Numbered from the stretch's first letter, positions 19,901 through 47,200 are shown. The stretch: 64,000 bases of DNA from Mobula hypostoma (GCF_963921235.1 NC_086097.1:109494001-109558000), one strand, 5' to 3'. The notes: generated by a model from the letters alone, not told the origin. Numbers and translations: made by a program.

Positions 19901-22010
19901 CCTGAATATTTGCCACATTTCTTCCATACCTTTCCTGAGAACATCTGTTTCCAATTTAAGCCTCCAGTTTCCTGCCTGATAGCCTCATAATTCCCTTAAA
20001 CGCTTTTCTAACTTGTCTGTCCCTATCCCTCTCCAATGCTATTGTAAAGGAGATAGAATTATGATCACTGTCTCCAAAATGCTCTCCCGCTGAGAGATCT
20101 GACACCTCACCAGGTTCAATTCCCAATACCAAATCAAGTACAGCCTCTCCTCTTTGTAGGCTTATCTACATACTGTGTCAAGAAACCTTCCTGAACACAC
20201 CTAACAAACTCCACCCCATCTAAACCCCTTACTCTAGGGAGATGCCAATCGATATTTGGGAAATTAAAATCTCCCATCACGACAACTCTATTATTATTAC
20301 ACCTTTCCAGGATCTGTTTCCCTATCTGCTCCTCAATATCCCTGTTACTATTGGGCGGCCTATAAAAAACACCCAGTAAAGTTACTGATCCCTTCTTGTT
20401 CCTAACCTCCACCCACAGAGACTCTGCAGACAATCCCTCTATGGCATCCACCTTTTCTGCAGTCATCTCTGATCAACAGTGTCATGCCCTCACCTCTTTT
20501 GCCTCCCTCCCTGTCCTTTCTGAAACATCTAAAACCTTGAAGTAACTATTCCTGTCCCTGAGCCATCCAAGTCTCTGTAATGGCCCCACATCATAGCTCC
20601 AAGTGCTGATCCACGCTCTAAGCTCATCCACTTTGTTTACAACATTCCTTGTGTTAAAATAGACACATCTCAAACCTTCGGTCTGAGTGCGTCCCTTCTC
20701 TATCACCTGCCTATCCTCCCTCTCACACTGTCTACAAGCCTTCTCTATTTGTGAGTCAACCTCTTCTTCCCCAGTCTCTTCAGTTTGGTTCCCACTCCCC
20801 AACAGTTCTAGTTTAAACTCTCCCCAGTAGCCTTAGCAAACCTCCCCGCCAGGATATTGGTCCCCCTGGGATTCAAATGCAACCCGTCCTTTTGTACAGG
20901 TCACCCCTGATCCAAAAGAGGTCCCAATGATCCAGAAATCTGAATCCCTGCCCCCCTGTCCATCCCTCAGCCACACATTTATCCCCCACCTCATTCTATT
21001 CCTATTCTCACTGTCACGTGGCACAGGTAAGATTATTACCTTTGCAGTCCTGTTTCTCAACTTCCTTCCTAACTCCCTGTAGTTTTTTTTCAGGACATCT
21101 TCCCTTTTCCTACCTATGTCATTGGTACCAATATGTATCACAACCTCTGGCTATTCTCCCTCCCACTGCAGGATATCTTGGATGCGATCTGAAACATCCC
21201 GGACCCTGGCACCTGGGAGGCAAACTACCATCCGAGTTTCTTTCCTGCGTCTACAGAATCGCCTGTCTGACCCCCTAACTATAGAGTCCCCTATCACTGC
21301 TGCCATTCTCTTCCTTTCCCTACCCTTCTGAGCCACAGGGCCAGACTCTGTGCCAGAGGCATGGCCACTGTCGCTTCTCCCAGGTAGGCCACCACCCCCC
21401 CAACAGTACTCAAACAGAAGTACTTATTGTTAAGGGGTACAGCCATAGGGGTACTCTCTAGTATCTGACTCTTCCCCTTCCCCCTCCTGACTGTGACCCA
21501 CTTGTCTGTCCCCTGTGGCCCCGGTGTGACCACCTGGTTTTAACTCCTCTCTATCACCTCCTCGCTCTCCCTGACCAAGCGAAGGTCATCAAGCTGCATC
21601 TGCAGTTCCCTAACTCGTTCCCTCAGGAGCTGCAGCTCGACACACCTGGTTCAGATATGGCCATCAGGGTGGCTGGGAGACTTCAGGACCTCCCACATCT
21701 GACACTGAGCACAGAAAATTGGCCTCACTCTCATACTACTTTCTTTCCGCAATTAACACAGGTAAACCTACCTTGCTTCATCCTGTTACTGCCTAAGCCC
21801 ATTGAGCCAAAGCCCTTTCACTCTGCTGCCTCTCACGCCGCTGCCCGCTCTAAATGCAGCCCACTAAATATGGTGGTCTTTTTAAACCTTTCATGCTCTA
21901 CTGGCTTACGTCACGCGCCCGCGCAGTCTCGCCCTTCTTTTACCCCGAGTAGTAAAAAACTCCCTTCGCTCCAAAATATCAGCCATTCACTCGCAGCCTT
22001 CTCGCTCCGA
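16939..22010 (-). mobile_element. Near full-length degenerate CR1 LINE (5'UTR, ORF1, ORF2 APE-RT), interrupted by a solo LTR
   Basis: ORFs 21151..21336 (VIGDSIVRG esterase block), 20833..21141, 20134..20466, 19334..19954, 18578..19312, 18348..18707 and 17047..17262. Tail CATAGAAAC at 16939 and a CpG-containing 5' end near 21900-22010. Confidence 0.93.
17340..18245 (+). mobile_element. Solo LTR (906 bp) inserted in CR1
   Basis: Termini TGTGACG...CGTAACA, with 4-bp TSD ATTC at 17336-17339 and 18246-18249. Removing it restores CR1 aacctattctcataagg. AATAAA near 18157. Confidence 0.9.
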
Positions 22011-22679: not shown

Positions 22680-23778
22680 TGTGACTTTGACCGTGGAATG
22701 ATTGTTGGTGCCAGATGGGGTGGTTTTGAGTATCTGATCTCCGGGAATTTTACATTCAACAAACTCTAGAGTTTACAGAGAATGGTGCAAGAAACAAAAA
22801 AAAACGTCCAGCTTTGTGGGGGAAATTGCTGTGTTAGTGAGGGAGAATGGCCAGATAGGCCAGACTGGTTCAAGCTGACAAGAAGGTGTTACCACACATA
22901 ACAACAGTGCTGTTCAGAAGAGCAACCCTGAACACACACTATGTTCAGCCTTGAAGTGGATGGGCTACAGCAGCAGAAGACCATGAACACACAGTCAGTG
23001 GACACTTTATTAGGTATAGGAGGTAACATAGAACATAGAATAGTACAGCACACTACAGGCCTTTTGGCCCACAATGTTATGCCACCTCTCAAACCCTGCC
23101 TCCCATATAAGCCCCCACCTTAAATTCCTCCATATACTTGTCTAGTAGTCTCTTAAATTTCACTAGCGTACCTGCCTCCACCACTGACTCAGGCAGTGCA
23201 TTCCACGCACCAACTACTCTCTGAGTAAAAAACCTTCCTCTAATATCCCCCTTGAACTTCCCACCCCTTACCTTAAAGCCATGTCCTCTTGTATTGAGCA
23301 GTGCTGCCCTGGGGAAGAGGCGCTGGCTATCCACTCTATCTATTCCTCTTATTATCTTGTACACCTCTATCATATCTCCTCTCATCCTCCTTCTCTCCAA
23401 AGAGTAAAGCCTTAGGCTTCCTTAATCTCTGATCAGAATGCATACTCTCTAAACCAGGCAGCATCCTGGTAAATCTCCTCTGTACCCTTTCCAATGCTTC
23501 CACATCCTTCCTATAGTGAGGTGACCAGAACTGGACACAGTACTCCAAGTGTGGCCTAACCAGAGTTTTATAGAGCTGCATCATTACATCGCGACTCTTA
23601 AACTCTATCCCTCGACTTAGGAAAGCTAACACCCCATAAGCTTTCTTAACTACCCTATCTACCTGTCAGGCAACTTTCAGGGATCTGTGGACATGTACCC
23701 CCAGATCGCTCTGCTCCTCCACACTACCAAGTATCCTGCCATTTACTTTGTAACTAACGAAGTAGCTACTGGGTGTAT
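22680..23778 (+). mobile_element. Tc1/mariner-like remnant split by a CR1
   Basis: gactttgaccgtggaatgattgttggtgccaga encodes a transposase N-terminal GMIVGAR-type motif. Terminal motifs cagtggacactttattaggt and taacgaagtagctactgggtgta. Confidence 0.6.
23028..23750 (-). mobile_element. 5'-truncated CR1 fragment inserted near the end of a Tc1-like element
   Basis: ORFs 23089..23400 and 23336..23632; (ATAGAAC)n tail; GTAAC on both sides; visibly near-identical to the 3' part of the CR1 at 38773. Confidence 0.9.
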
Positions 23779-25282: not shown

Positions 25283-25647
25283 TATCATCACTGCTTTCCT
25301 CAAGTTATCAGAGTCAGAAATGACCACAAAGCAATTAAATACAAATACTTCAATGGTTATTGAAATTCAATAAAGATCTGATGAAAACAATATCTTACCA
25401 ACACAGAATAGGTACAAGTAATTGAACAATACTCATTGTTAGCAAAGTTTCAGATGATGACAAGAGGGTGTACAGGAGCAAGATATATCAGTTAGTTGAG
25501 TGGTGTCACAGCAACAACCTGGCACTCAGTGTCAGCAAGACGAAAGAGCAAACAACAGGAATTCTGCAGTTGCTGGAAATTCAAGCAACACACATCAAAG
25601 TTGCTGGTGAACGCAGCAGGCCAAGCAGCATCTGTAGGAAGAGGTGC

Positions 25648-25683
25648 AGTCGACGTTTCAGGCCGAGACCCTTCGTCAGGACT
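25648..25683 (-). ncRNA. Minimal type I hammerhead ribozyme motif in Penelope pLTR
   Basis: Minus strand reads AGTC-CTGACGA-AGGGTCTCGGCCT-GAAACGTC-GACT: intact core, AGG/CCT helix II, palindromic ACGT helix III, GUC cleavage triplet and a 4-bp helix I. Confidence 0.8.
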
Positions 25684-27155
25684 AACTGAAGGAAGAGTTG
25701 GTAAGAGATTTGAAAGTGGGAGGGGGAGGGGGAGATCCAGAATGATAGGAGAAGACAGGAGGGGGAGGGATAGAGCCGAGAGCTGGACAGGTGATTGGCA
25801 AAAGGGATATGAGAGGATCATGGGACAGGAGGCTCAGGGAGAAGGAAAAGCGGGGGGGGGGGTTGGAAAACCCAGAGGATGGGCAAGGGGTATAGTCAGA
25901 GGACAGAGGGAGAAAAAGGAGAATGAGAGAAAGAATGTGTGTATAAAAATAAATAACAGATGGGGTACGAGGGGGAGGTGGGGTATTAGTGGAAGTTAGA
26001 GAAGTCGATGTTCATGCCATGAGGTTGGAGGCTATCCAGACGGAATATAAGGTGTTGTTCCTCCAACCTGAGTGTGGCTTCATCTTTACAGTAGAGGAGG
26101 CCGTGGATAGACATGTCAGAATGGGAATGGGATGTGGAATTAAAATGTGTGGCCACTGGGAGATCCTGCTTTCTCTGGTGGACAGAGCGTAGGTGTTCAG
26201 CAAAGCGGTCTCCCAGTCTGCGTCGGGTCACGCCAATATATAGAAGGCCACATCGGGAGCACCGTACGCAGTATATCACCCCAGCGGACTCACAGGTGAA
26301 GTGTTGCCTCACCTGGAAGGACTGTTTGGGGCCCTGAATGGTGGTAAGGGAGGAAGTGTAAGGGCATGTGTAGCACTTGTTCCGCTTACAAGGATAAGTG
26401 CCAGGAGGGAGATCAGTGGGGGTGGGATGGGGGGGACGAATGGACAAGGGAGTCACGTAGGGAGTGATCCCTGCGGAAAGCAGAGAGGTGGGGGGGGAGG
26501 GAAAGATGTGCTTAGTAGTGGGATCCCGTTGGAGGTGGCGGAAGTTACAGAGAATAATATGTTGGACCCGGAGGCTGGTGGGGTGGTAGGTGAGGACCAG
26601 GGGAACCCTATTCCTAGTGGGGTGGCAGGAGGATGGAGTGAGAGCAGATGTACGTGAAATGGGGGAGATGCGTTTGAGAGCAGAGTTGATAGTGGAGGAA
26701 GGGAAGCCACTTTCTTTAAAAAAGGAGGACATCTCCCTCGTCCTGGAATGAAAAGCCTCATCCTGAGAGCAGATGCGGCGGAGACGGAGGAATTGAGGGA
26801 AGGGGATGGCATTTTTGCAAGAGACAGGGTGAGAAGAGGAATAGTCCAGATAGCTGTGAGAGTCAGTAGGCTTATAGTAGACATCAGTGGATAAGCTGTC
26901 TCCAGAAACAGAGACAGAAAGATCTAGAAAGGGGAGGGAGGTGTCGGAAATGGACCAGGTAAACTTGAGGGCAGGGTGAAAGTTGGAGGCAAGGTTAATA
27001 AAGTCAACGAGCTCAGCATGCGAGCAGGAAGCAGTGCCAATGCAGTCAACGAGCTCAATTCCCTTTGCTAATCACCCTCCTGTCTTCTCCCATCATTTTG
27101 GATCTCCCCCTCCCCCTCCCACTTTCAAATCTCTTACTAACTCTTCCTTCAGTTA

Positions 27156-27189
27156 GTCCTGATGAAGGGTCTCGGCTTGAAACGTCGAC
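27156..27189 (+). ncRNA. Minimal hammerhead ribozyme motif in the inverted pLTR
   Basis: GTC-CTGATGA-AGGGTCTCGGCTT-GAAACGTC-GAC. Confidence 0.75.
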
Positions 27190-28387
27190 GGTACCTCTTC
27201 CTAGAGATGCTGCCTGGCCTGCTGCGTTCACCAGCAACTTCGACGAAAGAGCTGATTGTTGACTTCAGGAGGGGTAAGATGAGAGAACACAAACCAATCC
27301 TCATAGAGGGATCAGAAGTAGAGAGAGTGAGCAGGTTCAAGTTTCTGGGTGTCAAGATCTCTGAGGATCTAACTTGGTCCCAACATATTGACACAGCTAT
27401 TAAGAAGGCAGGATGGTGGTTATATTTCATTAGGAGTTTGAAGAGATTTGTTTTGTCAGCTGAAACACTCGAAAACTTCTATAGATGTACCATGAAGAGC
27501 ATTCTGACAAGCTGCATTACTGTCTGGTATGAGGGGACTACAGCACAGGACTGAAAGAAGCTACAGAAAGTTATAAAATTAGCCAGCTCCAACTTGGGTA
27601 CTGGCCTCCGTAATATCCAAGACATCTTCAAGGAGCCGTGCCTCAGAAAGGCGATGCCCATTATTAACAACCCCCATCACCCTCTTCCCATTGTTACCAT
27701 CAGGAAGGAGGTACAGAAGCCTGAAGGCACACACTCAGTGATTCAGGAACAGCTTCTTCCCCTTTGCCATGAGATTTCTAAATGGACATTGAACCCACGA
27801 ACACTATCTCACATTTTTTTTAAATTATTTCTGCTTTTGTACTATTTTTAATTAACAATTTAATATATATATATACTTACTGTAATTGATTTTTTTCTTT
27901 CAATGTTATCATGTATTGCATTGAACTGCTGCTGCTAAGTTAACAAATTTCACGACACATGATGGCAATAATAAACCTGATTCTGATTCTGAATGAAAAT
28001 CAGTTGCATCTTGATTTAACATTTCTGAACTGCAACTCAAAATTAAAGCCTCGTCTCAAGTTACAATTATTTTCCGATATTTCAGAATGTGTGGTGCTGG
28101 GCTCTCCTTCCATTACACTGGAGAACAAAGATTTTGCTTCCTGGATACTTTTGGGTGTATCTTACAGGTTTTGGGCTGTTGATAATGAAAATCACCATGA
28201 AATTTCCCTATCACACAATATTTTTTAAAAAATCAATGATATTTGTTATTTTAATTCATAATTCAACTCAGAGTAACTGATGTCAAGATTAAGGAAGACA
28301 TTTTTGTTGGTTAACATATCAATCAGGTCACTAATGGCAGACAATTCAATGAACTTCCTTAATCTTGACATCAGTTACTCTGAGTTG

Positions 28388-28567
28388 AATTTTTTCGAAT
28401 GTGTTGCTTCCTCATACATCTTTGGTGGTTACAATACAATGCTTGAAGCTGAACACAAGTATAATTCCAGACTACAAGTATCACCTGGAATTATATTTGT
28501 GTTCAGCTTCAAGCATTGTATTGTAACCAGCAAAGATGTATGAGGAAGCAACACATTCGAAAAAATT
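28388..28567. repeat. Near-perfect inverted repeat: 83-bp arms, 14-nt spacer, 2 mismatches
   Basis: Arms 28388-28470 and 28485-28567 compared base by base. Confidence 0.95.
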
Positions 28568-28797
28568 TGCTGTCTCGTCTTATTATCTGGTGCTGAGGCA
28601 CCTGTAACAGGTAGTGTGGTGAGGGTAAAGTAAGTATTTTTGTGTTTGTATTTTCCTGGTGCAATGAAAAAAAGTGCTTCTGCTGTGAGACTTCATGAAG
28701 TCCATAGTTAATGTTCTGAATAAGACTGTCACTAACTTGCTGTTTTGCTGGTGGGACAAGGAATACTGTGATTGTAATGAAGGATGAAACATATCAG

Positions 28798-29040
28798 ATT
28801 TATTTATTTTGGGATAGTGCACGGTAACTGGCCCTTCCAGTCAATGAGTCCGCGCTGCCCAATTACACCTGTGTGTTTAATTATCCCACTTACCCGTACA
28901 TCTTTGGACTGTGGGAGGAAACTGGAGTACCCGGAGGAAACCCGGAGAACATACAAACTCTTTGCAGACAGCTGTGGAGCTGAAACCAGGTCGCTAGTTC
29001 TGAAACAGTGTTATGCTAACTGCTATGCCACTGTGCCATA
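28798..29040 (-). mobile_element. V-SINE-like element
   Basis: tttggactgtgggaggaaactggagtacccggaggaaaccc. Confidence 0.7.
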
Positions 29041-29216
29041 TAACATACCTTTGGGAATCTACACTACTTGCAACACAAATTGCTTTTAAGAAATTAGGCA
29101 GTTACGTTCAAATACACGGCCCAAAGGAGAGCAACAGAACTAGTAAGAACACGATTAGTAAGTCCTGTAATTTAAAGAAAGATAGTGCAAATAGTTTTAC
29201 CTAACATCCTACTTAC

Positions 29217-29328
29217 TGTTTTCATTGCTTCTCTAAATTGTCGAGCCCGATCCTCAAGAAGAACCTCTAATTCTTTGACCTCTTCACGCACTGCCTGGTG
29301 TAACTTCTGTAGCCATCTCACATCCTCT
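29217..29328 (-). CDS. ITPRID1: Internal coding exon of ITPRID1-like gene ((R)EDVRWLQKLHQAVREEVKELEVLLEDRARQFREAMKT)
   Basis: gtcttctgacag|AGAGGATG...ATGAAAACA|gtaagt. The 112 nt are 1 + 37 codons with no stop and complete the split AG+A Arg codon. Heptad coiled-coil pattern, similar to remembered ITPRID1 [33 protein letters not shown]. Too short to appear in the ORF track. Confidence 0.82.
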
Positions 29329-29719
29329 CTGTCAGAAGACAGTGATTAATTAAATAACCCTTGACTGATACTCAAGCACAACATTTATTGGAAAAGAATG
29401 TATCAAATGAACTATCAATATTCATCCTGACAATGAATAGATATCTGGATATCCTCAAAGGGCTGGTGAACTTCAGACAGCTTTGGGTCAATCATATAAT
29501 CAAGAACATCAAGTTCACTTGAAGATTATGAGTGAATTAATTGGGTTTCAGCCCTTGAAGTTTGTAAAGAGGATGGTAGCTAATAGCATTTAGTTTTACT
29601 GTAATTGGATTTGGTTTTGCTTCTCTGGGCTGCAAACTCAGTAAAACAAAACTTCACGAGTAAAAATATCTATCAGATGAACTTCTAGATGTGTATACCT
29701 CCAATACCGGAAACTTAGT

Positions 29720-30212
29720 ATGTTATCAAAGACTCAAGCAAACTTCTACAGGTGTACCGTGGAGAGCATTCAGACTGGCTGCACCTCTGCCTGGGATGGA
29801 GTACAGCTGCAGGATGGAAAGAGGCTGCAGAGTGTTATTGACTTCACCACGGGCACAATCCTCCCCACCATCGAGGACATCTTGATGTCTCAATAAGGTG
29901 CCATCCAACATTAAGGACCATCACCATTCAGGGCATGCCCTCTTCTCATTACTACCATCAGGAAGGAGGAACAGGATCCTGAAAGACCCACAGTCAGTAA
30001 TTTAATAACAGCTTCTTCCCCTCTGCCATCAGATTTCTGAATGGTCCATGAACCCATAAACACTTACTATTCCTCTTTTGCTTTATCTATTTGTAACTTA
30101 TTTACTTATTGCAACTTATAGCATATTTTTAATGTTTTGCACTGTACTGCTGCCACAAAACTACAAATTTCATGACATATGTCAGTGACAATAATTTTGA
30201 TTCTGAATTTGA
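29720..30212 (+). mobile_element. Rex1/Babar-like LINE 3' fragment
   Basis: Visibly similar to 27470-27990 (ttctacaggtgtaccgtggagagcatt...taccatcaggaaggagg...cagcttcttcccctctgccatcaga). Confidence 0.7.
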
Positions 30213-31718
30213 TTTAACAGCATAGTTGTGAAATGGAGAGTTCTTTAATTTTATCCAAGTGCTAAATGTGTGATGTGGTGGTTTATATATGTGATAGTCC
30301 ACTACTGTATTGAGATCTCCTTCCATTTCCTTCAGAAGAGATGTACAATGTACATGTCCTATTAAGTCTCATATAAGACATAAGCAACTGAGGACAAAAG
30401 CAACTATGGACATGTTTCTGCCTCAATCTGGGCCAGTTTTATATTCACACAAATTAATGAGCAGAATTATGTTTCCCAGGAGATCAATTAATCCTTTTGC
30501 ATCAGAACGCATAGATAAAGAGGTACTGTATACTGGGACACCAGAAATGTTGATTGTGGGCCATATTGGCTCCCAGCTGCCATTTTCTGACCCATGAACA
30601 ATTTATGAGATGCCATGTGATGTGTGAAGACATCTTTGAAGTATTACGTAACTGTGCTCTGAAACTTTTCATCACGTCAACTCCCGATCTGTCAATGGTT
30701 ATGATAACACTGTAAAAATTTCTACCATGCCAACCACAGGTAAACCAGCCCATAAATTTCATTAATTCAACAACAACACGGTAATGTTAGTTAAAGTCGT
30801 ACTATTTCTAGGCTTATTACAATATTTATCAGGTTATTAAAGTAATAATTAACACCGAACCCTAAACCATGTCACCACATCACACATGCTTTCACTGAAG
30901 ACAATTGAAGATTCTTTTGGGAAGTACGGCTCATTTCTCAGAGAGAAACTGCTTGATGAATGGAGTAATACGTTTTACAGCCGTCCACACGAGAGACAAT
31001 CTTTCAGGTCTGTGTTGCTCTCATGTATTCCCTTCCCCCCAGTTTCTGATCCTTTCTCCTGCCCTCCAGAATGTGTTGTTTTCTCTTGCTCTCTCTCTCC
31101 CTCCCCCTTCCTCTCTTCCTCTCCCTGTCTCTGTCTCTCCATGAATTTTTGCTCAGGATTCAGGACTTCCCAGACAAATTTTCTTGCTTCTTGTTGTGAT
31201 AGCTAGCAATGAAATGGCGTTTTTAATTCATGGAGATACACTCTAACAGTACAAATCCATTTCAAACCATGGCAGTAGGGTAGTTCATATCAATGACCAG
31301 ATTTCATGAAGTTGTCTGTCTCAGTAAATGGGAAACCTGTTGTTGTTCTAATAGACTCCCATTAAACATGGACTGGAGGCACTGTGTTGGAATCCAGGTT
31401 TGCATCTGAGTCCAGCATTCAGAGGGTGCTACAATATTTTTTAAATCCCAACTCTGAATGAGACAACGTTGATAACTTACAGGTGGAAATAAAATACCAC
31501 ACCACTACTTCAAATCTGAATCCTGTCAGTTGATTGTCCTCTGATTGATATTGCATAGCCTGGGGCTATTAAAATCATCTACAATATTCATGTGCTGTAA
31601 AAACACAAAACGCTGTAAATGCTCAGGAGGTCAGGTCGCTTCTGTGGAAAGAGAAACCGAGCTGACACTGCAGATTGTCAGACCTGGGAATGAGACAAAA
31701 GAAGCTTGTTAAACTCAG

Positions 31719-31912
31719 AGCAACACACACAAAATGCTAGAGGAGCTCAGCAAGTCAGGCAGCATCCATTGAATGGAATATACAGTTGACATTTCATGCT
31801 GAGATGCTTCATCAGGATTAATAAAGGGTCTTGTCCCTAAATGTCAACCATTTATTCCCCTCCACAGATGCTGCCTGACATGTTGAGTTCCTCCAGAATG
31901 TTGTGTGTTGCT
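31719..31912. mobile_element. Old palindromic element made of two inverted Penelope-type ends joined at degenerate hammerhead cores
   Basis: agcaacacacacaaaatgctagaggagctcagc...cttcatcagga is followed by ...aagggtc...aaatgtcaacc...gagttcctccagaatgttgtgtgttgct. Confidence 0.7.
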
Positions 31913-34475
31913 ATAAGCTTAACTTCCTTGTGCTTTTGTTAAACATATATGTGTGTTTATTATTCACTACCAATTATTTCCCCGACTTTTTTTCCTGTTT
32001 TCATTTTTCTAATATCTATTGCAAGGAACCTACAACAACAGCAATATGGCCTAAAATCTATTCCCTATGTATGTTACATCAACTAGGCAATGAAGTACAG
32101 ACAAGGCCAAACCCTTGAGTAATCAATTTTGCTGATAACACAGCAGTAACCATATAACAATTACAGCACGGACACAGGCCATCTTGGCCCTTCTAGTCCG
32201 TGCCGAACTCTTACTCTCACCTAGTCCCACTGACCTGCACTCAGCCCATAACCCTCCATTCCTTTCCTGTCCATATACCTATCCAATTTTTCTTTAAATG
32301 GTAATATCAAACATGCCTCAACCACTTCTACTGGAAGCTCATTCCACACAGCTACCACTCTCTGAGTAAAGAAGTTCCCCGTCATGTCACCTCTAAACTT
32401 TTGTCCTTTAACTCTCAACTCATGTCCTCTTGTTTGAATCTCCCTCATTCTCAATAGAAAAAACCTATCCACGTCAACTCTATCAATCCCCCTCATAATT
32501 TTAAACACCTCTAGCAAGTCTCCCCTCAAACTTCTACGCTCTAAAGAATAAAGTCCTAACTTGTTCAACCTTTCTCTGTAACTTACGAGATGAAACTCAG
32601 GCAACATTTTAGTAAACCTCCTCTGTACTCTCTCAACTTTATTGACATTTTTCCTATAATTCGGTGACCAGAACTGTACACAATACTCCAAATTTGGCCT
32701 TACCAATGCCTTATACAATTTCAACATTACATCCCAACTCCTATACTCAATGCTCAGATTAATAAAGGCCAGCATACCAAAAGCTTTCTTCACCACCCTA
32801 TCCACATGATATTCTACCTTCAGGGAACTATGCACCACTATTCCTAGATCCCTCTGTTCTACAGCATTCTTCAATGTCCTACCATTCACCATGTATGTCC
32901 TATTTTGATTAGTCCTACCAAAATGTAGCACTTCACATTTTTCAGCATTAAACTCCATCTGTCATCTTTCAGCCCACTCTTCTAACTGGCCTAAATCTCT
33001 CTGCAAGCTTTGAAAACCTATTTCATTATCCACAACGCCACCTATCTTAGTATCATCTGCATACTTACTAATCCAATTTACCACCCCATCATTAGATCTT
33101 TAATATATATGACAGACAACATTGGACACAGTACAGATCCCTGAGGCACGCCGCTACAAACCGTCCTCTAATCTGACACATACTACTCTCTGGCATCTCC
33201 CATCTAGTCACTGCTGAATCCATTTTACTACTTTGATATCAATGCCTAACGATTGAACCTTCCTAACTGACCTACCGTGTGGAACCTTGTCAAAGGCCTT
33301 ACTGAAGTCCATATAGACAACATCCACCGCTTTACCCCCATCAATTTTCTTAGTAACCTCATCAAAAAATTCAATAAGATTTGTCAAACATGACCTTCCA
33401 CACACAAATCCATGTTGACTGTTCCTAATCAGACCATGATAGACGATGGTATATAATCCAGATAATTATATATACCATCTCTAAGAATACTTTCCATCAA
33501 TTTACCCACCACTGACATCAAACTCACAGGTCGATAATTGCTAGGTTTACTCTTTTAAACAATGGAACCACATGAGCAACACGCCAATCCTGCGGCACCA
33601 TCCCCGTTTCTAATGACGTTTGAAATATTTCTGTCAGAGCCTCTGCTATTTCCACACTAACTTCCCTCCAGGTCCTAGGGAATATCTTGTTCAGACCCGG
33701 AGACTTATCCACTTTTATATTCCTTAAAAGTGCCAGTACTTCCTCTTCTTTAATCATCATACTTTCCATAACTACCCTTTTTGTTCCCTTTACCTTACAC
33801 AATTCAATATCCTTCTCCTTAGTGAATACTGAAGAAAAGAGATTGTTCAAAATCTCCCCTTCTGCACATAGCTGTCCACACTGATTCTCTAAGGGACCAA
33901 TTTTATCCCTCCCTATCCTTTTGCTATTAACATAACTGTAGAAACCCTTTGGATTTATTTTCACCTTGCTGGTCAAAGCAGCCTTGTATCTTCTTTCAGC
34001 TTTTCTAATTTCTTTTTTAAGATTCTTTTTACATTCTTTATATTCCTCAAGCACCTCATTACCTTCAAGCTGCCTATATTTATTGAAGATCCCTCTCTTT
34101 TTCTGAACCAAGTTTCCAATATCGCTTGAAAACCATGGCTCTCTCAAACTTTTAACCTATCTTTTCAACCTAACAGGTTTTTAACCTTCAAAATTTCACC
34201 TTTAAATGACCTCCATTTCTCTATTACATCCTTCCCATAAAACAGATTGTTCCAATCCACTCCTTCTAAATCCTTTTGCATCTCCTCAAAGTTAGCCTTT
34301 CTCCAATCAAAATTCTCAATCGTAGGTCCAGTCCTATCCTTCTCCATTATTATATTGAAACTAATGGTATTGTGATCACCGGACCCGAAGTGCTCCCCAA
34401 CACATACCTCCGTCAACACACATCAAAGTTGCTGGTGAACGCAGCAGGCCAGGCAGCATCTCTAGGGAGAGGTGC

Positions 34476-34511
34476 AGTCGACGTTTCAGGCTGAGACCCT
34501 TCATCAGGACT
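34476..34511 (-). ncRNA. Minimal hammerhead ribozyme motif
   Basis: Minus strand reads AGTC-CTGATGA-AGGGTCTCAGCCT-GAAACGTC-GACT. Confidence 0.77.
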
Positions 34512-34788
34512 AACTGAAGGAAGAGTTAGTAAGAGATTTGAAAGAGGTTGTGATTGTGGGAGATTTTAATTTTCCACACATAGACTGGGAAGCCCATTCT
34601 GTCAAAGGGCTGGATAGTTTGGAGTTTGTCAAATATGTGCAAGATAGTTTTTTGCAGCAATACATTGAGGTACCAACTTGAGAAGGGGCAGTGTTGGATC
34701 TCCTGTTACGGAATGAGATAGGGCAGGTGACGCAGGTATGTCAACAACAGGAATTCTTTCAAATCTCTTACTAACTCTTCCTTCAGTT

Positions 34789-34824
34789 AGTCCTGACGAA
34801 GGGTCTCAGCCTGAAACGTCAACC
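34789..34824 (+). ncRNA. Minimal hammerhead ribozyme motif with a mismatched helix I
   Basis: AGTC-CTGACGA-AGGGTCTCAGCCT-GAAACGTC-AACC. Confidence 0.6.
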
Positions 34825-36036
34825 GTACCTCTCCCTAGAGTTGCTGTCTGGCCTGCTGCGTTCACCAGCAACTTTGATGTGTGTTGCTTGAATTTCCAGC
34901 ACCTGCAGAATTCCTGTTGTTGACATACCTCCGTCACCTGCCCTATCTCCTCTCTCCTAGTCTCTTTAACTTGATTCCCTCCTCCAAACCATTCTAGTTT
35001 AAAATCACCTCAGTAGCCCTTGCAAATCTCCCCGCCAGGATATTGGTCCCCCTAGCATTCAAGTGTAATCCTTCCTTTTTGTACAGGCCACACCTGCGCC
35101 AAAAAAGGGTCCCAATGATCCGAAAACTTGAATCCCTGCCCCCTGCTCCAATCCCTCAGCCACGCATTTATCCTCCACCTCATTGCATTCCTACTCTCAC
35201 TGTTGCATGGCACAGGCAATAATCCCAAGATTACTACCTTTACAGTCCTTTTTTTCAACTCCCTTCCTAGCTCCCTATATTCTTCTTTCAGGACCTCTCC
35301 TCTTTTCCTACCTATGTCATTGGTACCTATATGTACCACGACCTCTGGCTCCTCTCCCTCCCACTTCAGGACCTCGTGGATGCGATCAGAAACATCCCAG
35401 ACCCTGGCACCAGGGAAGCAAACTACCATCTGGGTCTCCGGACTACATCCACAGAATTGTCTATCTGACCCCCTAACTATCAAGTCCCCTATTACTACTG
35501 CCCTCCTCTTCCTTTCCCTACCCTTCTTAGTTACAGGGCCGGACTCTGTGCTGGAGGCACGCCATTGTTGCTTCCCCCAGGTATGCTGTTCCCCCCAACA
35601 TTACTCAAACAGGAGTACTTATTGTCAAGGGGCACAGCCACAGGGGTACTCTCTATTACCTGATTCTTCCTATTCCCCCTCCTAACCTCGACCCACTTGT
35701 CTGCCTCCCATGGTTCCGGTGTGACCACCTGCCTGCAAATCCTCTCTATCAACTCCTCACTCTCCCTGACAAGACGAAGGTCATTGAGCTGTAGCTCCAG
35801 TTCCCTAATGCGGTCTCTTAGGCACTGCACCTCGACGCACCTGGTGCAGATGTGGACGTCCGGGAGGCTGAGAGACTCCAGGACCACCCACATCCAGCAC
35901 GGAGAACAACAAGCTGCCCTCACACTCAAACTTTCCCCTCTCCTCAAATAAGGGGTCTCATCATCTACAACGATGAGACAGCCTACAGAGACAGCTTGAG
36001 GACTAATACTAGGCAAATAATCTCTTTCTCAATGTC

Positions 36037-37939: not shown

Positions 37940-38285
37940 TAATGGAACACAGATAAGACCCTTTGGCCCAACAATTTCACCCATTTTGTCCCAATTTCCT
38001 GTGTTTAGCCTATAGCCCTCTAAGAACCAATTTTCCATGTACCTTTGCAAGTGCTTCTTAAGTTACGCTACCGTACTGGCCTCAATCACTTTTTCTGGTA
38101 GCTCATTCCATATACTTAACTATCACTGCATGAAAAAGTTACTTTTAATTCTTTCCCCTCTCACCCTAAATTTGTGCTTTCCAGTGTTGGACTTACCTAT
38201 CTTGAGGAAAAGATTGTTACCATCCACCTTATCTCTGCCCCTCATGATTTTATAAACCTCTAATAAGGTCACCCCTCATTATCCA
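37940..38285 (-). mobile_element. Old CR1 3' fragment abutting the left edge of the satellite
   Basis: ccctcatgattttataaacctctaataaggtcacccctcatt is the reverse complement of the RGDLIEVYKIMRG-type motif. Confidence 0.7.
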
Positions 38286-38294
38286 GCACTGGTG

Positions 38295-41200
38295 GAGACA
38301 GACCATGGGTTTCAACAACCAGTGACAGACCCAGACCATTGGTTCCAACAACCAGCGATGGACCCAGACCATCAGTTCCTACAACTATAGATGGGCCCAG
38401 GCCGGGGGTTCCTACAACTACAGATGGACCCAGGCCATGGGTTCCTACAACTACAAGTGGACCCAGGCTGTGGGTTCCTACAACTACAGGTGGACCCAGG
38501 CCGTGGGTTCCTACAACTACAGATGGACCCAGGCTATGGGTTCCTAGAACTACAGATGGACCCAGGCCATTGGTTCCTGCAACTACAGATGGACCCAGGC
38601 CATGAGTTCCTACAACTACAGATGGGCCCAGGCATGGGTTCCTACAACTACAGAAGGGCCCAGGCCATGGGTTCCAACAACTACAGATGGACTTAGGCCA
38701 TTAGTTCCTACAACTACAGATGGACCCAGGCCATGGGTTCCTACAACTACAGATGGGCCCAGGCCATGGGTTCATAGAACATAGAACATAGAACATAGAA
38801 TAGTACAGCACAGTACAGACCTTTCGGCCCACAATGTTGCGCCGCCTCGCAAACCCTGCCTCCCATATAAGCCCCTACCTTAAATTCCTCCATATACCTG
38901 TCTAGCAGTCTCTTAAACTTCACTAGTGTATCTGCCTCCACCACTGACTCAGGCAGTGCATTCCACGCACCAACCACTCTCTGAGTAAAAAACCTTCCTC
39001 TAATATCCCCCTTGAACTTCCCACCCCTTACCTTAAAGCCATGTCCTCTTGTATTGAGAAGTGGTGCCCTGGGGAAGAGGCGCTGGCTATCCACTCTATC
39101 TATTCCTCTTATTATCTTGTACACCTCTATCATGTCTCCTCTCAGACTCCTTCTCTCCAAAGAGTAAAGCCTTAGCTCCCTTAATCTCTGATCATAATGC
39201 ATACTGTCTAAACCGGGCAGCATCCTGGTAAATCTACTCTGTACCCTTTCCAATGCTTCCACACCCTTCCTATAGTGAGGCGACCAGAACTGGACACAGT
39301 ACTCCAAGTGTGGCCTGACCAGAGTTTTATAGAGCTGCATCATTACATTGCGACTCTTAAACTCTATCCCTCGACTTATGAAAGCTAACACCCCATAAGC
39401 TTTCTTAACTACCCTAACCACCTGTGAGGCAACTTTCAGGGATCTGTGGACATGTAACCCCAGATCCCTCTGCTCCTCCACACTACCAAGAATCCTGCCA
39501 TTTACTTTGTCCTCTGCCTTGGAGTTTGTCCTTCCAAAGTGTACCACCTCAGACTTCTCTGGGTTAAACTCCATCTGCCACTTCTCAGCCCATTTCTGCA
39601 TCCTATCAATGTCTCTCTGCAATCTTTGACAATCCTCTACACTACCTACAATACCAGCAACTTTGTGTCGTCTGCAAACTTGCCAACCCACCTTCTACCC
39701 CCACATCCATTTCGTTAATAAAAATCACGAAAAGTAGAGGTCCCAGAACAGTTCCTTGTGGGACACCACCAGTCACAATCCTCCAATTTGAATGTACTCC
39801 CTCCACCTTGACCCTCTGCCTTCTGCAGGCAAGACAATTCTGAATCCACCTGGCCAAATTTCCCTGGATCCCATGTCTTCTGACTTTCTGAATAAGCCTA
39901 CTGCGTGGAACCTTGTCAAATGCCTTACTAAAATCCATATAGATCACATCCACTGCACTACTCTCATCTATATGCCTGGTCACCTCCTCAAAGAACTCTA
40001 TCAGGCTTGTTCGACACGATCTGCCCTTCACAAAGCCATGCTGACTGTTCCTGATCAGACCATGATTCTCTAAATGCCCATAGATCCTATCTCTAAGAAT
40101 CTTTTCCAACAGCTTTCCCAGCACAGACGTAAGGTTCACTGGTCTATAATTACCCGGACTATCCCTACTACCTTTTTTGAACAAGGGGACAACATTCGCC
40201 TCCCTCCAATCCTCCGGTACCATTCCCATGGACGAGAACATAAAGATCCTAGCCAGAGGCTCAGCAATCTCTTCCCTCGCCTCGTGGAGCAGCCTGGGGA
40301 ATATTCCGTCAGGCCCCGGGGATTTATCCGTCCTAATGTATTTTAACAACTCCAACACCTCCTCTCGCTTAATATCAACATGTTCCAGAACATCAACCTC
40401 ACTCATATTGTCCTCACCATCATCAAGTTCCCTCTCATTGGTGAATACCGAAGAGAAGTATTCATTGAGGACCTCGCTCACTTGCACAGCCTCCAGGCAC
40501 ATCTTCCCACCTTTATCTCTAATCAGTCCTACCTTCACTCCCATCATCCTTTTTTTCTTCAGATAATTGAAGAATACCTTGAGGTTTTCCTTTACCCTAC
40601 TCGCCAAGGCCTTCTCATGCCCCCTTCTTGCTCTTCTCAGCCCCTTCTTAAGCTTCTTTCTTGCTTCCCTATATTCCTCAATAGACCCATCTGATCCCTA
40701 CTTCCTAAACCTCATGTATGCTGCCTTCTTCCACCTGACGAGATTTTCCACCTCACTTGTCACCCATGATTCCTTCACCCTACCATTCTTTATCTTCCTC
40801 ACTGGGACAAATTTATCCCTAACATCCTGCAAGAAATCTCTAAACATCGACCACATGTCCATAGTACATTTCCCTGCAAAAACATCATCCTAATTCACAC
40901 CCGCAAGTTCTAGCCTTATAGCCTCATAACTTGCACTTCCCCAATTAAAAATTTTCCTGCCCTCTCTGATTCTATCCTTTTCAATGATAATGCTAAAGGC
41001 CAGGGAGCGGTGGTCACTGTCCCCCAGATGCTCACCCACTGAGAGATCTGTGACCTGACCCAGTTCATTACCTAGCACTAGATCTAGTATGGCATTCCCC
41101 CTAGTTGGCCTGTCCACATAATGTGACAGGAATCCGTCCTGGACACACTTAACAAACTCTGCCCCATCCAAACCCTTGGAACTAATCAGGTGCCAATCAA

Positions 41201-44200
41201 TATTAAGGAATCAATATTAGGTCCCTACAACTACAGATGGGCCCAGGCCATGGGTTCCAACAACTACAGATGGACCTAACCATGGGATGCTAGAACTACT
41301 GATGGACCTAGGCCATGGGTTCCTAGAACTACAGATGGACCTAGGCCATGGGTTCCTAGAACTACAGATGGACCCAGGCCATGGGTTCCTACAACTACAG
41401 ATGGGCCCAGGCCATGGGTTCCTACAACTACAGATGGACCTAGGCCATGGGCTCCTGGAACTACAGATGGACCCAGGCAATGGGTTCCAACAAGTACAGA
41501 AGACCTAGGCCATGGGTTCCTAGAACGACAGGTGGGCCCAGGTAATGGGCTCCAACAAGTAAGGTGGACCCAAGCCATGGGTTCCTACAACTACAGATGG
41601 GCCCAGGCTATGGGTTCCTACAGCTACAGATGGGCCCAGGCCATGTGTTCCTACAACTACAGATGGGCTCAGGCCATGGGATCGTTCAATTACAGATGGA
41701 CCCACGCCATGGGTTCCTACAACTACAGATGGACGAATGCCGTAGGTTCCTACAACTATAGATGGGGAAAGGCCATGGGTTCCAACAACTACAGATGGAC
41801 CTAGGCCATGGTTCATACAATTACAGAAGGATCCAGGCCATAGGTTCCTACAATTACAGATGGACCACGGCCATGGGTTCCAACAACTACAGATGGATCC
41901 ATGCCATGGGTTCCTACAACTACAGATGGATGCAGGCCATGGATTCCAACAACTACAGATGGACCTAGGCCATGGGTTCCTACAACTACAGATGGGCCCA
42001 GGCTATGGGTTCCTACAACTACAGATGGGCTCAGGCCATGGGATCGTTCAATTACAGATGGACCCACGCCATGGGTTCCTACAACTACAGATGGATGCAT
42101 GCCGTAGGTTCCTACAACTATAGATGGGCCAAGGCCATGGGATCCAACAACTACAGGTGGACCTAGGCCATGGGTTCCTGGAACTACAGATGGGCCCAGG
42201 CCATGGGTTCCAACAACTACAGATGGATCCATGTCATTGGTTCCTACAACTACAGATGGACCTAGGTCATGGGTTCCTGGAACTACAGATGGACCCAGGC
42301 AATGGGTTCCAACAACTACAGATGGGCCCAGGCCATGTGTTCCTACAACTACAGATGGACGAATGCCGTAGGTTCCTACAACTATAGATGGAGCAAGGCC
42401 ATGGGTTCCAACAACTATAGGGGGACCTAGGCCAGGGGTTCCTGGAACTACAGATGGTCCCAGGCCATGGGTTCCAACAACTACAGATGGACCTAAGCCA
42501 TGGTTCATACAATTACAGATGGATCCAGGCCATAGGTTCCTACAATTACAGATGGACCACGGCCATGGGTTCCAACAACTACAGATGGATCCATGCCATG
42601 GGTTCCTACAACTACAGATGGATGCAGGCCATGGATTCCAACAACTACAGATGGACCTAGACCATGAGTTTCTACAACTACAGATGGACGCAGGCCGTGG
42701 GTTCATTGAACTACAGATGTACCAAGGCCATGTGTTCCTACAACTACAGATGGGCCCAGGCCATGGGTTCCTTCAATTACAGATGGACGCAGGCCGTGGG
42801 TTCCTACAACTACAGATGGATGCATGCCGTAGGTTCCTACAACTATAGATGGGCCAAGGCCATGGGTTCCAACAACTACAGGTGGACCTAGGCCATGGTT
42901 CGTACAATTACAGATGGATCCAGGCCATAGGTTCCTACAACTATAGATGGGCCAAGGCCATGGGTTCCAACAACTACAGATGGATCCATGCCATGGGTTC
43001 CTACAACTACAGATGGATGCAGGCCATGGATTCCAACAACTACAGATGGACCTAGGCCATGGGTTCCTACAACTACAGATGGGCCCAGGCTATGGGTTCC
43101 TACAACTACAGATGGGCCCAGGCCATGTGTTCCTACAACTACAGATGAGCTCAGGCCATGAGATCGTTCAATTACAGATGGACCCACGCCATGGGTTCCT
43201 ACAACTACAGATGGATGCATGCCGTAGGTTCCTACAACTATAGATGGGCCAAGGCCATGGGTTCCAACAACTACAGGTGGACCTAGGCCATGGGTTCCTG
43301 GAACTACAGATGGGCCCAGGCCAAGGGTTCCAACAACTACAGATGGATCCATGCCATGGGTTCCTACAACTACAGATGGACCTAGGTCATGGGTTCCTGG
43401 AACTACAGATGGACCCAGGCAATGGGCTCCAACAACTACAGGTGAACCCAGGCCATGGGTTCCTAGAACGACAGATGGGCCCAGGCAATGGGTTCCAACA
43501 ACTACGGGTGGATCCAGACATGGGTTCCTACAACTACAGATGGGCCCAGGCCATGTGTTCCAACAACTAGAGATGGATGCAGGCCGTGGGTTCATTGAAC
43601 TACAGATGTACCAAGGCCATGTGTTCCTACAAGTACAGATGGGCCCAGGCCATGGGTTCCTTCAATTACAGATGGACGCAGGCTGTGGGTTCATTGAACT
43701 ATAGATGTACCAAGGCCATGGGTTCCTACTACTACAGATGGGCCCAGGCCATAGGTTCCTACAACTACAGATGGACCTAGGCCATGGGTTCCTAGAATTA
43801 CAGACGGGCCCAGTCCATGGGTTCCCAGAACTACAGATGGACCCTGGCAATGGGCTCCAACAACTACAGGTGAACCCAGGCAATGGGTTCCAACAACTAC
43901 AGATGGACCTAGGCCATGGTTCGTACAATTACAGATGGATCCAGGCCATGGGTTCCTAGAACTACAGATGGACCAAGGTCATGGGTTCCAACAACTACAG
44001 ATATATCAAAGCCATGGGTTCCTACAAATACAGATGGACCTAGGTCATGGGTTCCTGGAACTACAGATGGACCCAGGCAATGGGTTCCAACAAGTACAGA
44101 AGACCTTGGCGATGGGTTCCTAGAACTACAGGTCGGCCCAGGCAATGGGCTCCAACAAGTACAGGTGGACCCAGGCCATGAGTTCCTACAATTACAGATG

Positions 44201-47200
44201 GACCTAGGCCATGGTTTCCTAGAACTACAGAGGAGCCCAGGCCATGGTTTCCTAGAACTACAGATGGATGCAGGCCGTGGGTTTCTAGAACTACAGATGG
44301 ATCCAGGTCATGGTTTCCTACAACTGCAGATGGGCCCAGGACATGGGTTCTTACAATTACAGATGGACCAAGGTCATGGGTTCCAACAACTACAGATGTA
44401 TCAAAGTCATGGGTTCCTACAAATACAGATGGACCTAGGCCTTGGGCTACTACAACTACAGATGGGCCCAGGCCATGGGTTCCAACAACTACAGATAGAT
44501 GCAGCCCATGGGTTCCTACAACTACAGATGGATACAGGCCATGGGTTCCTAGAATTACAGACGGGCCCAGTCCATGGGTTCCTACAACTACAGATGGATA
44601 CAGGCCATGGGTTCCTAGAATTACAGACGGGCCCAGTCCATGGGTTCCCAGAACTACAGATGGATCCAGGCAATGGGCTCCAACAACTACAGGTGAACCC
44701 AGGCCATGGGTTCCTAGAACGACAGATGGGCCCAGGCAATGGGTTCAAACAGCTACGGGTGGATCCAGACATGGGTTCCTACAACTACAGATGGGTTCAG
44801 GCCATGAGATCGTTCAATTACAGATGGACCCACGCCATGGGTTCCTACAACTACAGATGGACGTATGCCGTAGGTTCCTACAACTATAGATGGGCCAAGG
44901 CCATGGGTTCCAACAACTACAGGTGGACCTAGGCCATGGGTTCCTGGAACTACAGATGGGCCCAGGCCATGGGTTCCAACAACTACAGATGGATCCATGC
45001 CATGGGTTCCTACAACTACAGATGGATGCAGGCCATGGATTCCAACAACTACAGATGGACCTAGGCCATGGGTTCCTACAACTACAGATGGGCCCAGGCT
45101 ATGGGTTCCTACAACTACAGATGGGCTCAGGCCATGGGATCGTTCAATTACAGATGGACCCACGCCATGGGTTCCTACAACTACAGATGGATGCATGCCG
45201 TAGGTTCCTACAACTATAGATGGGCCAAGGCCATGGGATCCAACAACTACAGGTGGACCTAGGCCATGGGTTCCTGGAACTACAGATGGGCCCAGGCCAT
45301 GGGTTCCAACAACTACAGATGGATCCATGTCATTGGTTCCTACAACTACAGATGGACCTAGGTCATGGGTTCCTGGAACTACAGATGGACCCAGGCAATG
45401 GGTTCCAACAACTACAGATGGACCTAGGCCATGGTTCGTACAATTACAGATGGATCCAGGCCATGGGTTCCTAGAACTACAGATGGACCAAGGTCATGGG
45501 TTCCAACAACTACAGATATATCAAAGCCATGGGTTCCTACAAATACAGATGGACCTAGGTCATGGGTTCCTGGAACTACAGATGGACCCAGGCAATGGGT
45601 TCCAACAAGTACCGAAGACCTTGGCGATGGGTTCCTAGAACTACAGGTCGGCCCAGGCAATGGGCTCCAACAAGTACAGGTGGACCCAGGCCATGGGTTC
45701 CTACAATTACAGATGGACCTAGGCCATGGTTTCCTAGAACTACAGATGGATGCAGGCTGTGGGTTCCTAGAACTACAGATGGATCCAGGTCATGGGTTCC
45801 TACAAATACAGATGGATCAAGGTCATGGTTTCCTACAACTGCAGATGGGCCCAGGACATGGGTTCTTACAATTACAGATGGACCAAGGTCATGGGTTCCA
45901 ACAACTACAGATGTATCAAAGCCATGGGTTCCTACAAATACAGATGGACCTAGGTCATGGGTTCCTGGAACTACAGATGGACCCAGGCAATGGGTTCCAA
46001 CAAGTACAGAAGACCTAGGCGATGGGTTCCTAGAACTACAGGTCGGCCCAGGCAATGGGCTCCAACAAGTACAGGTGGACCCAGGCCATGAGTTCCTACA
46101 ATTACAGATGGACCTAGGCCATGGTTTCCTAGAACTACAGAGGAGCCCAGGCCATGGTTTCCTAGAACTACAGATGGATGCAGGCCGTGGGTTTCTAGAA
46201 CTACAGATGGATCCAGGTCATGGTTTCCTACAACTGCAGATGGGCCCAGGACATGGGTTCTTACAATTACAGATGGACCAAGGTCATGGGTTCCAACAAC
46301 TACAGATGTATCAAAGTCATGGGTTCCTACAAATACAGATGGACCTAGGCCTTGGGCTACTACAACTACAGATGGGCCCAGGCCATGGGTTCCAACAACT
46401 ACAGATAGATGCAGCCCATGGGTTCCTACAACTACAGATGGATACAGGCCATGGGTTCCTAGAATTACAGACGGGCCCAGTCCATGGGTTCCTACAACTA
46501 CAGATGGATACAGGCCATGGGTTCCTAGAATTACAGACGGGCCCAGTCCATGGGTTCCCAGAACTACAGATGGATCCAGGCAATGGGCTCCAACAACTAC
46601 AGGTGAACCCAGGCCATGGGTTCCTAGAACGACAGATGGGCCCAGGCAATGGGTTCAAACAGCTACGGGTGGATCCAGACATGGGTTCCTACAACTACAG
46701 ATGGGTTCAGGCCATGAGATCGTTCAATTACAGATGGACCCACGCCATGGGTTCCTACAACTACAGATGGACGTATGCCGTAGGTTCCTACAACTATAGA
46801 TGGGCCAAGGCCATGGGTTCCAACAACTACAGGTGGACCTAGGCCATGGGTTCCTGGAACTACAGATGGGCCCAGGCCATGGGTTCCAACAACTACAGAT
46901 GGATCCATGCCATGGGTTCCTACAACTACAGATGGATGCAGGCCATGGATTCCAACAACTACAGATGGACCTAGGCCATGGGTTCCTACAACTACAGATG
47001 GGCCCAGGCTATGGGTTCCTACAACTACAGATGGGCTCAGGCCATGGGATCGTTCAATTACAGATGGACCCACGCCATGGGTTCCTACAACTACAGATGG
47101 ATGCATGCCGTAGGTTCCTACAACTATAGATGGGCCAAGGCCATGGGATCCAACAACTACAGGTGGACCTAGGCCATGGGTTCCTGGAACTACAGATGGG

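Follow-up and report, generated by a model that had tools for sequence, protein, structure and literature searches.

A Penelope-like insertion in Mobula hypostoma that encloses an inverted copy of its own junction and flank

How can a retroelement insertion come to enclose an inverted copy of the very site in which it has landed? This question is raised by a locus in the genome of Mobula hypostoma (GCF_963921235.1 NC_086097.1:109494001-109558000; this whole stretch of 64,000 nucleotides, which is rich in repeats, is called the window here), where two copies of the pseudo-long terminal repeat (pLTR) of a Penelope-like element (PLE) lie head to head in a decayed CR1 long interspersed nuclear element (LINE), separated by CR1 sequence in the opposite orientation. 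An earlier description made from the DNA alone (the sequence-only reading) had drawn attention to it; the feature is real in the assembly and was rightly described, apart from corrections of 1-5 nt. Positions are window coordinates on the + strand unless stated, and everything below concerns a single locus whose structure is known from the assembly.

Anatomy of the insertion

On the + strand, the left flank is followed by a target-site duplication (TSD), an antisense pLTR without its tail, inverted CR1 sequence, an antisense piece of pLTR tail, a sense pLTR, the second TSD copy, 13 bp of flank and the first open reading frame (ORF1) of a CR1 (Table 1). The whole structure is enclosed by this single TSD, whose two copies agree throughout, as the sequence-only reading had stated. 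Contigs of four sequencing runs, from three samples at most, were compared with the window (none of the 23 runs listed contained half of the sampled words); one of these contigs comes from another CR1 copy, which holds the TSD word once, and joins 34399 to 34923 with one letter between.

Table 1. Features of the insertion and of the CR1 that carries it, in window coordinates.
Feature	Position	Strand	Evidence or remark
3' part of the host CR1 LINE, with reverse transcriptase (RT) and the end of the endonuclease domain, decayed (stops, frameshifts)	32221..34415	-	family proteins P0002-P0005 by tblastn, each piece 61-88% identical; ORFs
TSD, left copy, 14 bp	34402..34415	+	14/14 identical to 34923-34936
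Inverted tail-less pLTR arm, 129 bp	34416..34544	-	2-nt microhomology with TSD; minimal hammerhead motif, helix I intact
Inverted host CR1 endonuclease sequence, 170 bp, gone from today's right flank	34545..34714	+	
Inverted copy of the 13 bp of flank adjoining the right TSD, and third, inverted TSD copy (13/14)	34715..34741	+	
Final 14 nt of the pLTR tail, in inverted copy	34742..34755	-	34756-34757 (2 nt) fit both sides and form the putative fold-back seed
Sense pLTR arm with tail, 167 bp	34756..34922	+	5'-truncated just past the C-rich tract of the family; 93% to 25551-25716
TSD, right copy	34923..34936	+	identity to left copy
Leftover 13 bp of the original right flank	34937..34949	-	ends at the deletion junction
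CR1 5' part: ORF1 with SGNH/GDSL esterase domain	34950..35932	-	Pfam Lipase_GDSL_2, E 2e-10; 81% to 20761-21737

The two pLTR arms match at 126 of 132 positions (34414-34545 against 34755-34886), and the arms proper differ at 6/129 positions, with five transitions and two differences at CpG. The 3' end of the inverted arm is 36-38 nt shorter than that of the sense arm, so the tail is present on one arm only. The arms had been placed at 34416-34545 and 34755-34922 and described as truncated at the same base. Both are present and share their family start base (34756, mirrored by 34544), and the limits become 34416-34544 and 34756-34922, because the base preceding both arms, although shared, is not the pLTR's: it differs from the family majority base, and family pLTRs run on into the C-rich tract. 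As judged by loose ends of contigs and copies within the window, the base at 34545 fits the CR1 family and that at 34755 is part of the inverted tail.

An inverted copy of the right junction with one mismatch, carrying a third TSD copy, had also been noticed. The segment 34715-34757 is indeed the reverse complement of 34907-34949 at 42 of 43 positions (BLAST within the window, E 4e-15), and the sole mismatch, at 34733, lies inside the third TSD copy. The complete inverted CR1 piece, which closes with this TSD copy, measures 197 bp (34545-34741) instead of about 196 bp, and the tail piece beyond it 14 nt plus a 2-nt overlap instead of 15 nt.

What had been missed is that a head-to-head layout with a TSD and a tail is the standard pattern of PLEs. 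The insertion fits this class by its truncated head-to-head arms, its one-sided tail and a TSD of variable length (14 bp here, 11 bp at 25539-27252). Most of the anatomy is standard, the flank copy being the unusual part, a rare variant whose mechanism is likely to be as in the retroelements R2 and L1.

The structure could in principle stem from a fault in the assembly or the reads, for example mixed haplotypes or a long read that is a fold-back chimera. No contig of the four runs spans the locus and no locus-specific junction is found among the joints listed (the best 15 of 743 and the best 12 of 632), which is weak as evidence. A chimera would give identical arms, whereas those found here differ, and it would produce neither an exact TSD, nor the tail-less end typical of the family, nor 170 bp that are absent from the flank. 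We consider an artefact highly improbable.

The pLTR is likely to belong to an endonuclease-bearing, Neptune-like PLE. Its close relative at 25551-25716 sits 3' of an ORF at 25986-27071, of which only the 3' part is present, with a Pfam match to GIY-YIG (E 6e-4, 20.5 bits, under the cut-off of 22.6). In its translation, cysteines can be read between GIY and YIG (CCHH motif), and by eye a zinc-finger-like CX2-5CxxC linker between RT and endonuclease; such a linker is described as common to Neptune and Nematis (PMC8557442). The family appears to be extremely abundant in cartilaginous-fish genomes; exact pLTR patterns gave no match in viral and metagenome contigs, which is uninformative for fish genomes. 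Head-to-head pairs account for three of the five pLTR-like loci found in the window by BLAST (25539-27252, 31708-31923 and 34416-34922), and one of these three has a flank-derived spacer. The pair at 31708-31923 is older and of a related pLTR family, with a 72% match between arms; a 6-bp direct repeat at 31702 and 31915 is maybe its TSD and maybe chance.

Origin of the spacer and loss of the flank

The spacer translates into residues of the CR1 endonuclease, its first 43 amino acids being 72-95% identical to seven family proteins, and it has a Pfam match to Exo_endo_phos_2 (E 2e-4, below the cut-off). Family proteins P0002-P0005 place these residues directly before those of the left flank. Likewise, in all four runs, contigs of intact CR1 copies lead from 34410/34415 over to 34732/34727, where they continue on the opposite strand. 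Because both proteins and contigs read from the left flank straight into the spacer, the spacer is, on sequence grounds, the native continuation of the target CR1 itself, inverted. The CR1 family is very abundant; among named relatives of the host CR1 protein, those of Hypanus sabinus and Narcine bancroftii are the closest (4 of the 7 matches are named).

The junction-proximal 41 bp of the spacer include the pLTR-tail/TSD junction that is specific to this insertion. Within these 41 bp there is also a base at which the inserted piece agrees with the present flank but not with run X9's consensus for the CR1 family, read at a loose end. No second close copy of 34545-34714 was found in the window, where the best other matches amount to 79% across 43 nt and to 68% across 98 nt. 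Since the locus's own tail/TSD junction and a variant shared with the flank are carried, the best-supported origin is the one that the sequence-only reading had proposed, in which the new junction and the target DNA were copied by fold-back or by a switch of template. The same reading spoke of the capture of adjacent DNA; here capture is best understood as a local inverted duplication, with no sign of transport elsewhere.

The right flank is deleted from 34950 onwards. The gap is ~645 bp when measured by the paralogue at 20761 and ~738 bp by P0005, in which 246 amino acids separate the homologous anchors on the two sides, and the paralogue suggests a microhomology of ~3 nt at the deletion junction. 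The loss beyond about 34950 had been recognised, and the part of the spacer missing from the flank had been put at about 165 bp; it is 170 of the inverted 211 bp, the inverted arm having been cut from 211 to 41 bp. The instability of palindromes would favour the loss of most of a 211-bp inverted arm. The deletion may be part of the same repair or a later event.

Right of the deletion, 34950-35932 is ~83% like the CR1 copies at 20761-21737 and 4613-5047, while the spacer, the left flank and the RT pieces are only ~60-66% like them. The host CR1 has possibly undergone an exchange of 5' modules between CR1 families, or is a chimera. If it had already been deleted or chimeric at 34949/50, a fold-back could have copied the tail, the TSD and 13 bp, and then switched through 27 bp of homology to another CR1, as DNA or RNA, which supplied the 170 bp. 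This would account for the 170 bp without a source in today's flank and for the change in likeness across the junction, and the abundance of the CR1 family would help. However, it requires one extra switch, and among the matches listed (the best 40 of 138) the spacer differs from the family as densely as the left flank does (7 differences in 170 bp vs 9 in ~200 bp). Moreover, the sequence right of the junction, once translated, looks by eye like the N-terminus of P0005, in keeping with a simple deletion, and no matching CR1 continuation is seen past the 3' end of the host. We regard this origin as improbable. A 5'-truncated CR1 nested in another CR1 was also considered and rejected, there being no continuation in 28000-32300.

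Formation of the structure

With moderate confidence, we attribute the structure to a single aberrant integration of a short PLE pLTR RNA into the CR1, during which the end of a complementary DNA (cDNA) folded back, was extended into the target and was then end-joined. The order and origin of the pieces can be read from the assembly; the proposal bears on their timing, the enzyme of the fold-back step, the use of one or two primers and the date of the deletion. The target would first be nicked in a stagger, 14 nt apart, and its right end would prime a cDNA at the start of the tail; this cDNA would extend for 167 nt, up to a stop just past the C-rich tract. The freed 3' end of this cDNA would then fold back and pair with two matching nucleotides that lie 14-16 nt from where the cDNA began, and its extension on a DNA template would copy the tail, the TSD and, beyond it, 183 bp of the target's flank. 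The copied end would then be joined, blunt or with an overlap of 1 nt, to the tail-less arm. We favour the view that this arm is another cDNA, for which the left target end served as primer and the same RNA, or a sister of it, as template, and which halted at the same stop base; the alternative, a second fold-back of the same strand, would have an identical sequence outcome. Finally, gap filling or a later deletion would remove 0.65-0.74 kb of flank. Because the spacer contains the locus's own tail/TSD junction, it would have been copied after the first cDNA was attached.

The sequence itself appears equally compatible with two cDNAs and with a second fold-back of one strand. Two cDNAs are favoured because the shared start base would follow if both had run out at one end of the RNA. 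A common start on either side of a 211-bp excursion is expected for two cDNAs, whereas a single self-primed strand would have to come back precisely to the turn. The polarity of the second arm, taken from the target end to which it is attached, is that of the first cDNA; this arm begins 36-38 nt within the tail and matches the TSD over 2 nt. In vitro, a PLE protein of the Poseidon clade cuts and extends both target strands and starts reverse transcription at two sites that bound the tail (PMC11167929); the 36-38-nt tail difference between the arms matches these two start sites and the extension of both strands. A base common to both arms (34833/34467) makes up less than 1% of the family depth in runs X1 and X2 and less than 2% in X5, which points to one source for both arms; conversion between the arms could also explain it.

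The proposal is further supported by other members of the family. The locus at 25539-27252, which served as a control within the window, is a 5'-truncated Neptune-like PLE (RT end and GIY-YIG, minus strand) within its 11-bp TSD, with a tail-less inverted pLTR at 27072-27243, and the 14-nt insert at its turn (27044-27057) repeats 27002-27015, 42 nt away, and is thus locally templated. Many direct head-to-head turns at other places are seen among the contig joints, and arm starts in the family are tightly coupled: at the 20 head-to-head joints listed they are no more than 15 nt apart in 13, no more than 5 nt in 5 and exactly equal in 1, with ~26% expected within 15 nt under a uniform null. The nominal p of 3e-4 for these arm starts is overstated, as the rows are selected, non-independent and partly from one hot spot. 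The 20 joints comprise 13 of the best 15 of 743 rows and 7 of the best 12 of 632; two opposite-strand CR1 joints, two duplicates and three joints of other kinds were left out.

Several observations weigh against this proposal. The junction microhomologies are all 0-2 nt, at chance level, and the fold-back seed is one of nine such dinucleotides in the cDNA, a better 3-nt seed having gone unused. Divergence cannot date the pieces (6/129, or 4.7%, between the arms against 1/41, or 2.4%, in the junction copy; Fisher p = 1.0). The base at 34833/34467 is common in run X9 (55% of depth) and rare only in organisms A and B. We are also dealing with a single locus, one of three inverted pairs in the window, and the in vitro work on PLEs concerns the Poseidon clade, a clade other than that of this element (PMC11167929).

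The main rival is a formation in two steps, because the identical sequence would result, a point that the sequence-only reading had missed. An ordinary head-to-head pair would have been formed first, and a later break at the centre of the palindrome would have been repaired by a fold-back of the right end that copied the tail, the TSD and the flank, the deletion stemming from the same repair. Direct joints whose starts nearly coincide, as seen above (5/20 within 5 nt, 1/20 exact), are common in the family, and the shared start base would be explained with no need to come back to the turn. Nominally, the arms are also more diverged than the junction copy, but the difference is not significant. 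Breaks in yeast show fold-back inverted insertions (PMC11724301), although these are mostly 5-34 bp, vs 211 bp here. As two rare events would be needed, and both ends would have to be trimmed to the same base, we hold later break repair to be unlikely.

Local re-insertion of a read-through RNA, a host CR1 transcript running into the pLTR, at an earlier insertion had also been suggested by the sequence-only reading. The inverted piece does have the polarity of a sense transcript of the host CR1, running into the antisense tail. However, a second event exactly at the first 5' junction would be needed, for which there is no second TSD, and the tail-less arm and the shared start base would be left unexplained; we find this route scarcely credible. 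An inversion between two independent pLTR insertions was rejected by reasoning, as their 5' ends would point outward.

To return to a single integration, its version with two cDNAs could be of wider relevance. The locus could be a frozen intermediate, if head-to-head PLE insertions come from two cDNAs that are primed at both target ends, one starting with the tail and one without it, and have their 3' ends resolved by fold-back and end-joining. We put this generalisation forward tentatively and consider it rather doubtful.

It had further been supposed that ribozyme-bearing PLE ends would enable the capture of adjacent DNA. Hammerheads were sought with our own pattern, built from the hammerhead core with the architecture given in PMC4209133, and the minimal type-I pattern is present in four pLTR arms. 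Helix I keeps 4/4 pairs in the inverted arm and 2/4 in the sense arm, whose motif (34789-34824) is damaged. Rfam gave no match in the window at the gathering score; at E up to 10, it gave four sub-threshold matches in 34380-34960, taken as chance and none of them a hammerhead. Monomer folds of the four hammerhead regions were no better than those of shuffles (z -0.9 to +0.2). Because the cut predicted for the hammerhead falls after 34820, with the turn ~64 nt upstream of it, the turn was rejected as the mark of a ribozyme cut; hammerhead mutants leave insertion in vitro unchanged (PMC11167929). These results do not indicate a role of the ribozyme in this event. At other loci (34445-34538 joined to 34767-34894), several head-to-head turns fall together at 34789-34791, where the hammerhead motif has its upstream edge, and not at the predicted cut.

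Elsewhere in the window, two adjoining palindromes without a match to the pLTR family occupy 28260-28567 (28388-28567, 92% over 180 bp; 28260-28391, 76%). A very long degenerate tandem array at 41220-58450 has many long open frames and, from the translations, an 11-residue periodicity (a unit of ~33 bp); a ~500-bp block of it, at 38284-38785, is set apart by a CR1 copy. The CR1 3' ends at 38785-39510 and 23025-23751 are 95% identical over 727 bp, the closest CR1 pair among those compared in the window.

Significance and comparison with known systems

The locus is one decayed insertion inside another repeat, and no function of its own is evident. Its value could lie in what it records. The origin of the inverted pLTR and one-sided tail of PLEs is described as unresolved in the available parts of PMC3846280, PMC8557442 and PMC11167929, and self-priming cannot be told from two-ended priming by ordinary head-to-head copies. 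If copies with spacers taken from the flank were collected in numbers, models with one primer could be told from those with two, because the order of synthesis is recorded in them. From the same collection one would learn how frequently neighbouring DNA is rearranged by a very abundant element. If the reading with two cDNAs is true, PLE integration recurrently writes inverted duplications and deletions of nearby DNA into the genomes of cartilaginous fishes. A partial literature search, which left out the supplements of PLE papers, found no report of a PLE that encloses, in inverted form, a copy of the flank at its insertion site, and the accessible part of a retrozyme preprint (10.64898/2026.07.22.740005) adds nothing on flanks.

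Among PLEs, those of Adineta vaga have an inverted pLTR that is 37 bp shorter, an optional tail and a TSD, and self-priming was proposed for the inverted junction (PMC3846280); inverted 5'-truncated copies with a tail of 30-40 bp are described as well (PMC8557442). Our locus resembles Pen2a_Av of A. vaga in its head-to-head pLTRs within one TSD, its shorter inverted copy and its one-sided tail (PMC3846280, PMC8557442). Unlike Pen2a_Av, it has 211 bp of its own junction and flank between the arms and includes no ORF. Host DNA has also been captured between the pLTRs of A. vaga PLEs, as with an NRPS (non-ribosomal peptide synthetase) gene and with unrelated sequences between TSD-flanked solo pLTRs (PMC3846280). 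The likeness is that DNA foreign to the element lies between pLTRs within a TSD; the difference is that the cargo in A. vaga stems from another locus or is unrelated, whereas here the landing site itself, with the new junction included, is copied in inverted form. The junction-proximal 41 bp are local, which sets these apart from mobilisation of the A. vaga type, and no second copy of the cassette is found in the window.

L1 insertions include local inversions, inverted duplications and templated genomic pieces (PMC11702581). As in L1, a fold-back during integration would yield an inverted copy of adjacent DNA, sometimes with a deletion and a twin-primed second arm. In the L1 cases depicted, however, the fold-back takes place at the reciprocal target end and uses up to 14 bp of homology, whereas here it would involve the cDNA end and 2 nt. 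The locus is not a twin-priming inversion of the L1 type, because the inverted arm overlaps the other fully, duplicating 129 of its 167 nt, and L1 pieces abut with little overlap (PMC11702581).

In R2 snap-back, the 3' end of the cDNA primes DNA-templated synthesis on its own cDNA, and less often on nearby target, before the 5' join (PMC11371274). The copying of 34907-34949 into 34715-34757, continuing into native CR1, is similar to this. R2 differs in that its insertions were engineered in human cells and belong to another class of retroelement; at our locus, the copy crosses the junction into the flank and is followed by a second arm (PMC11371274).

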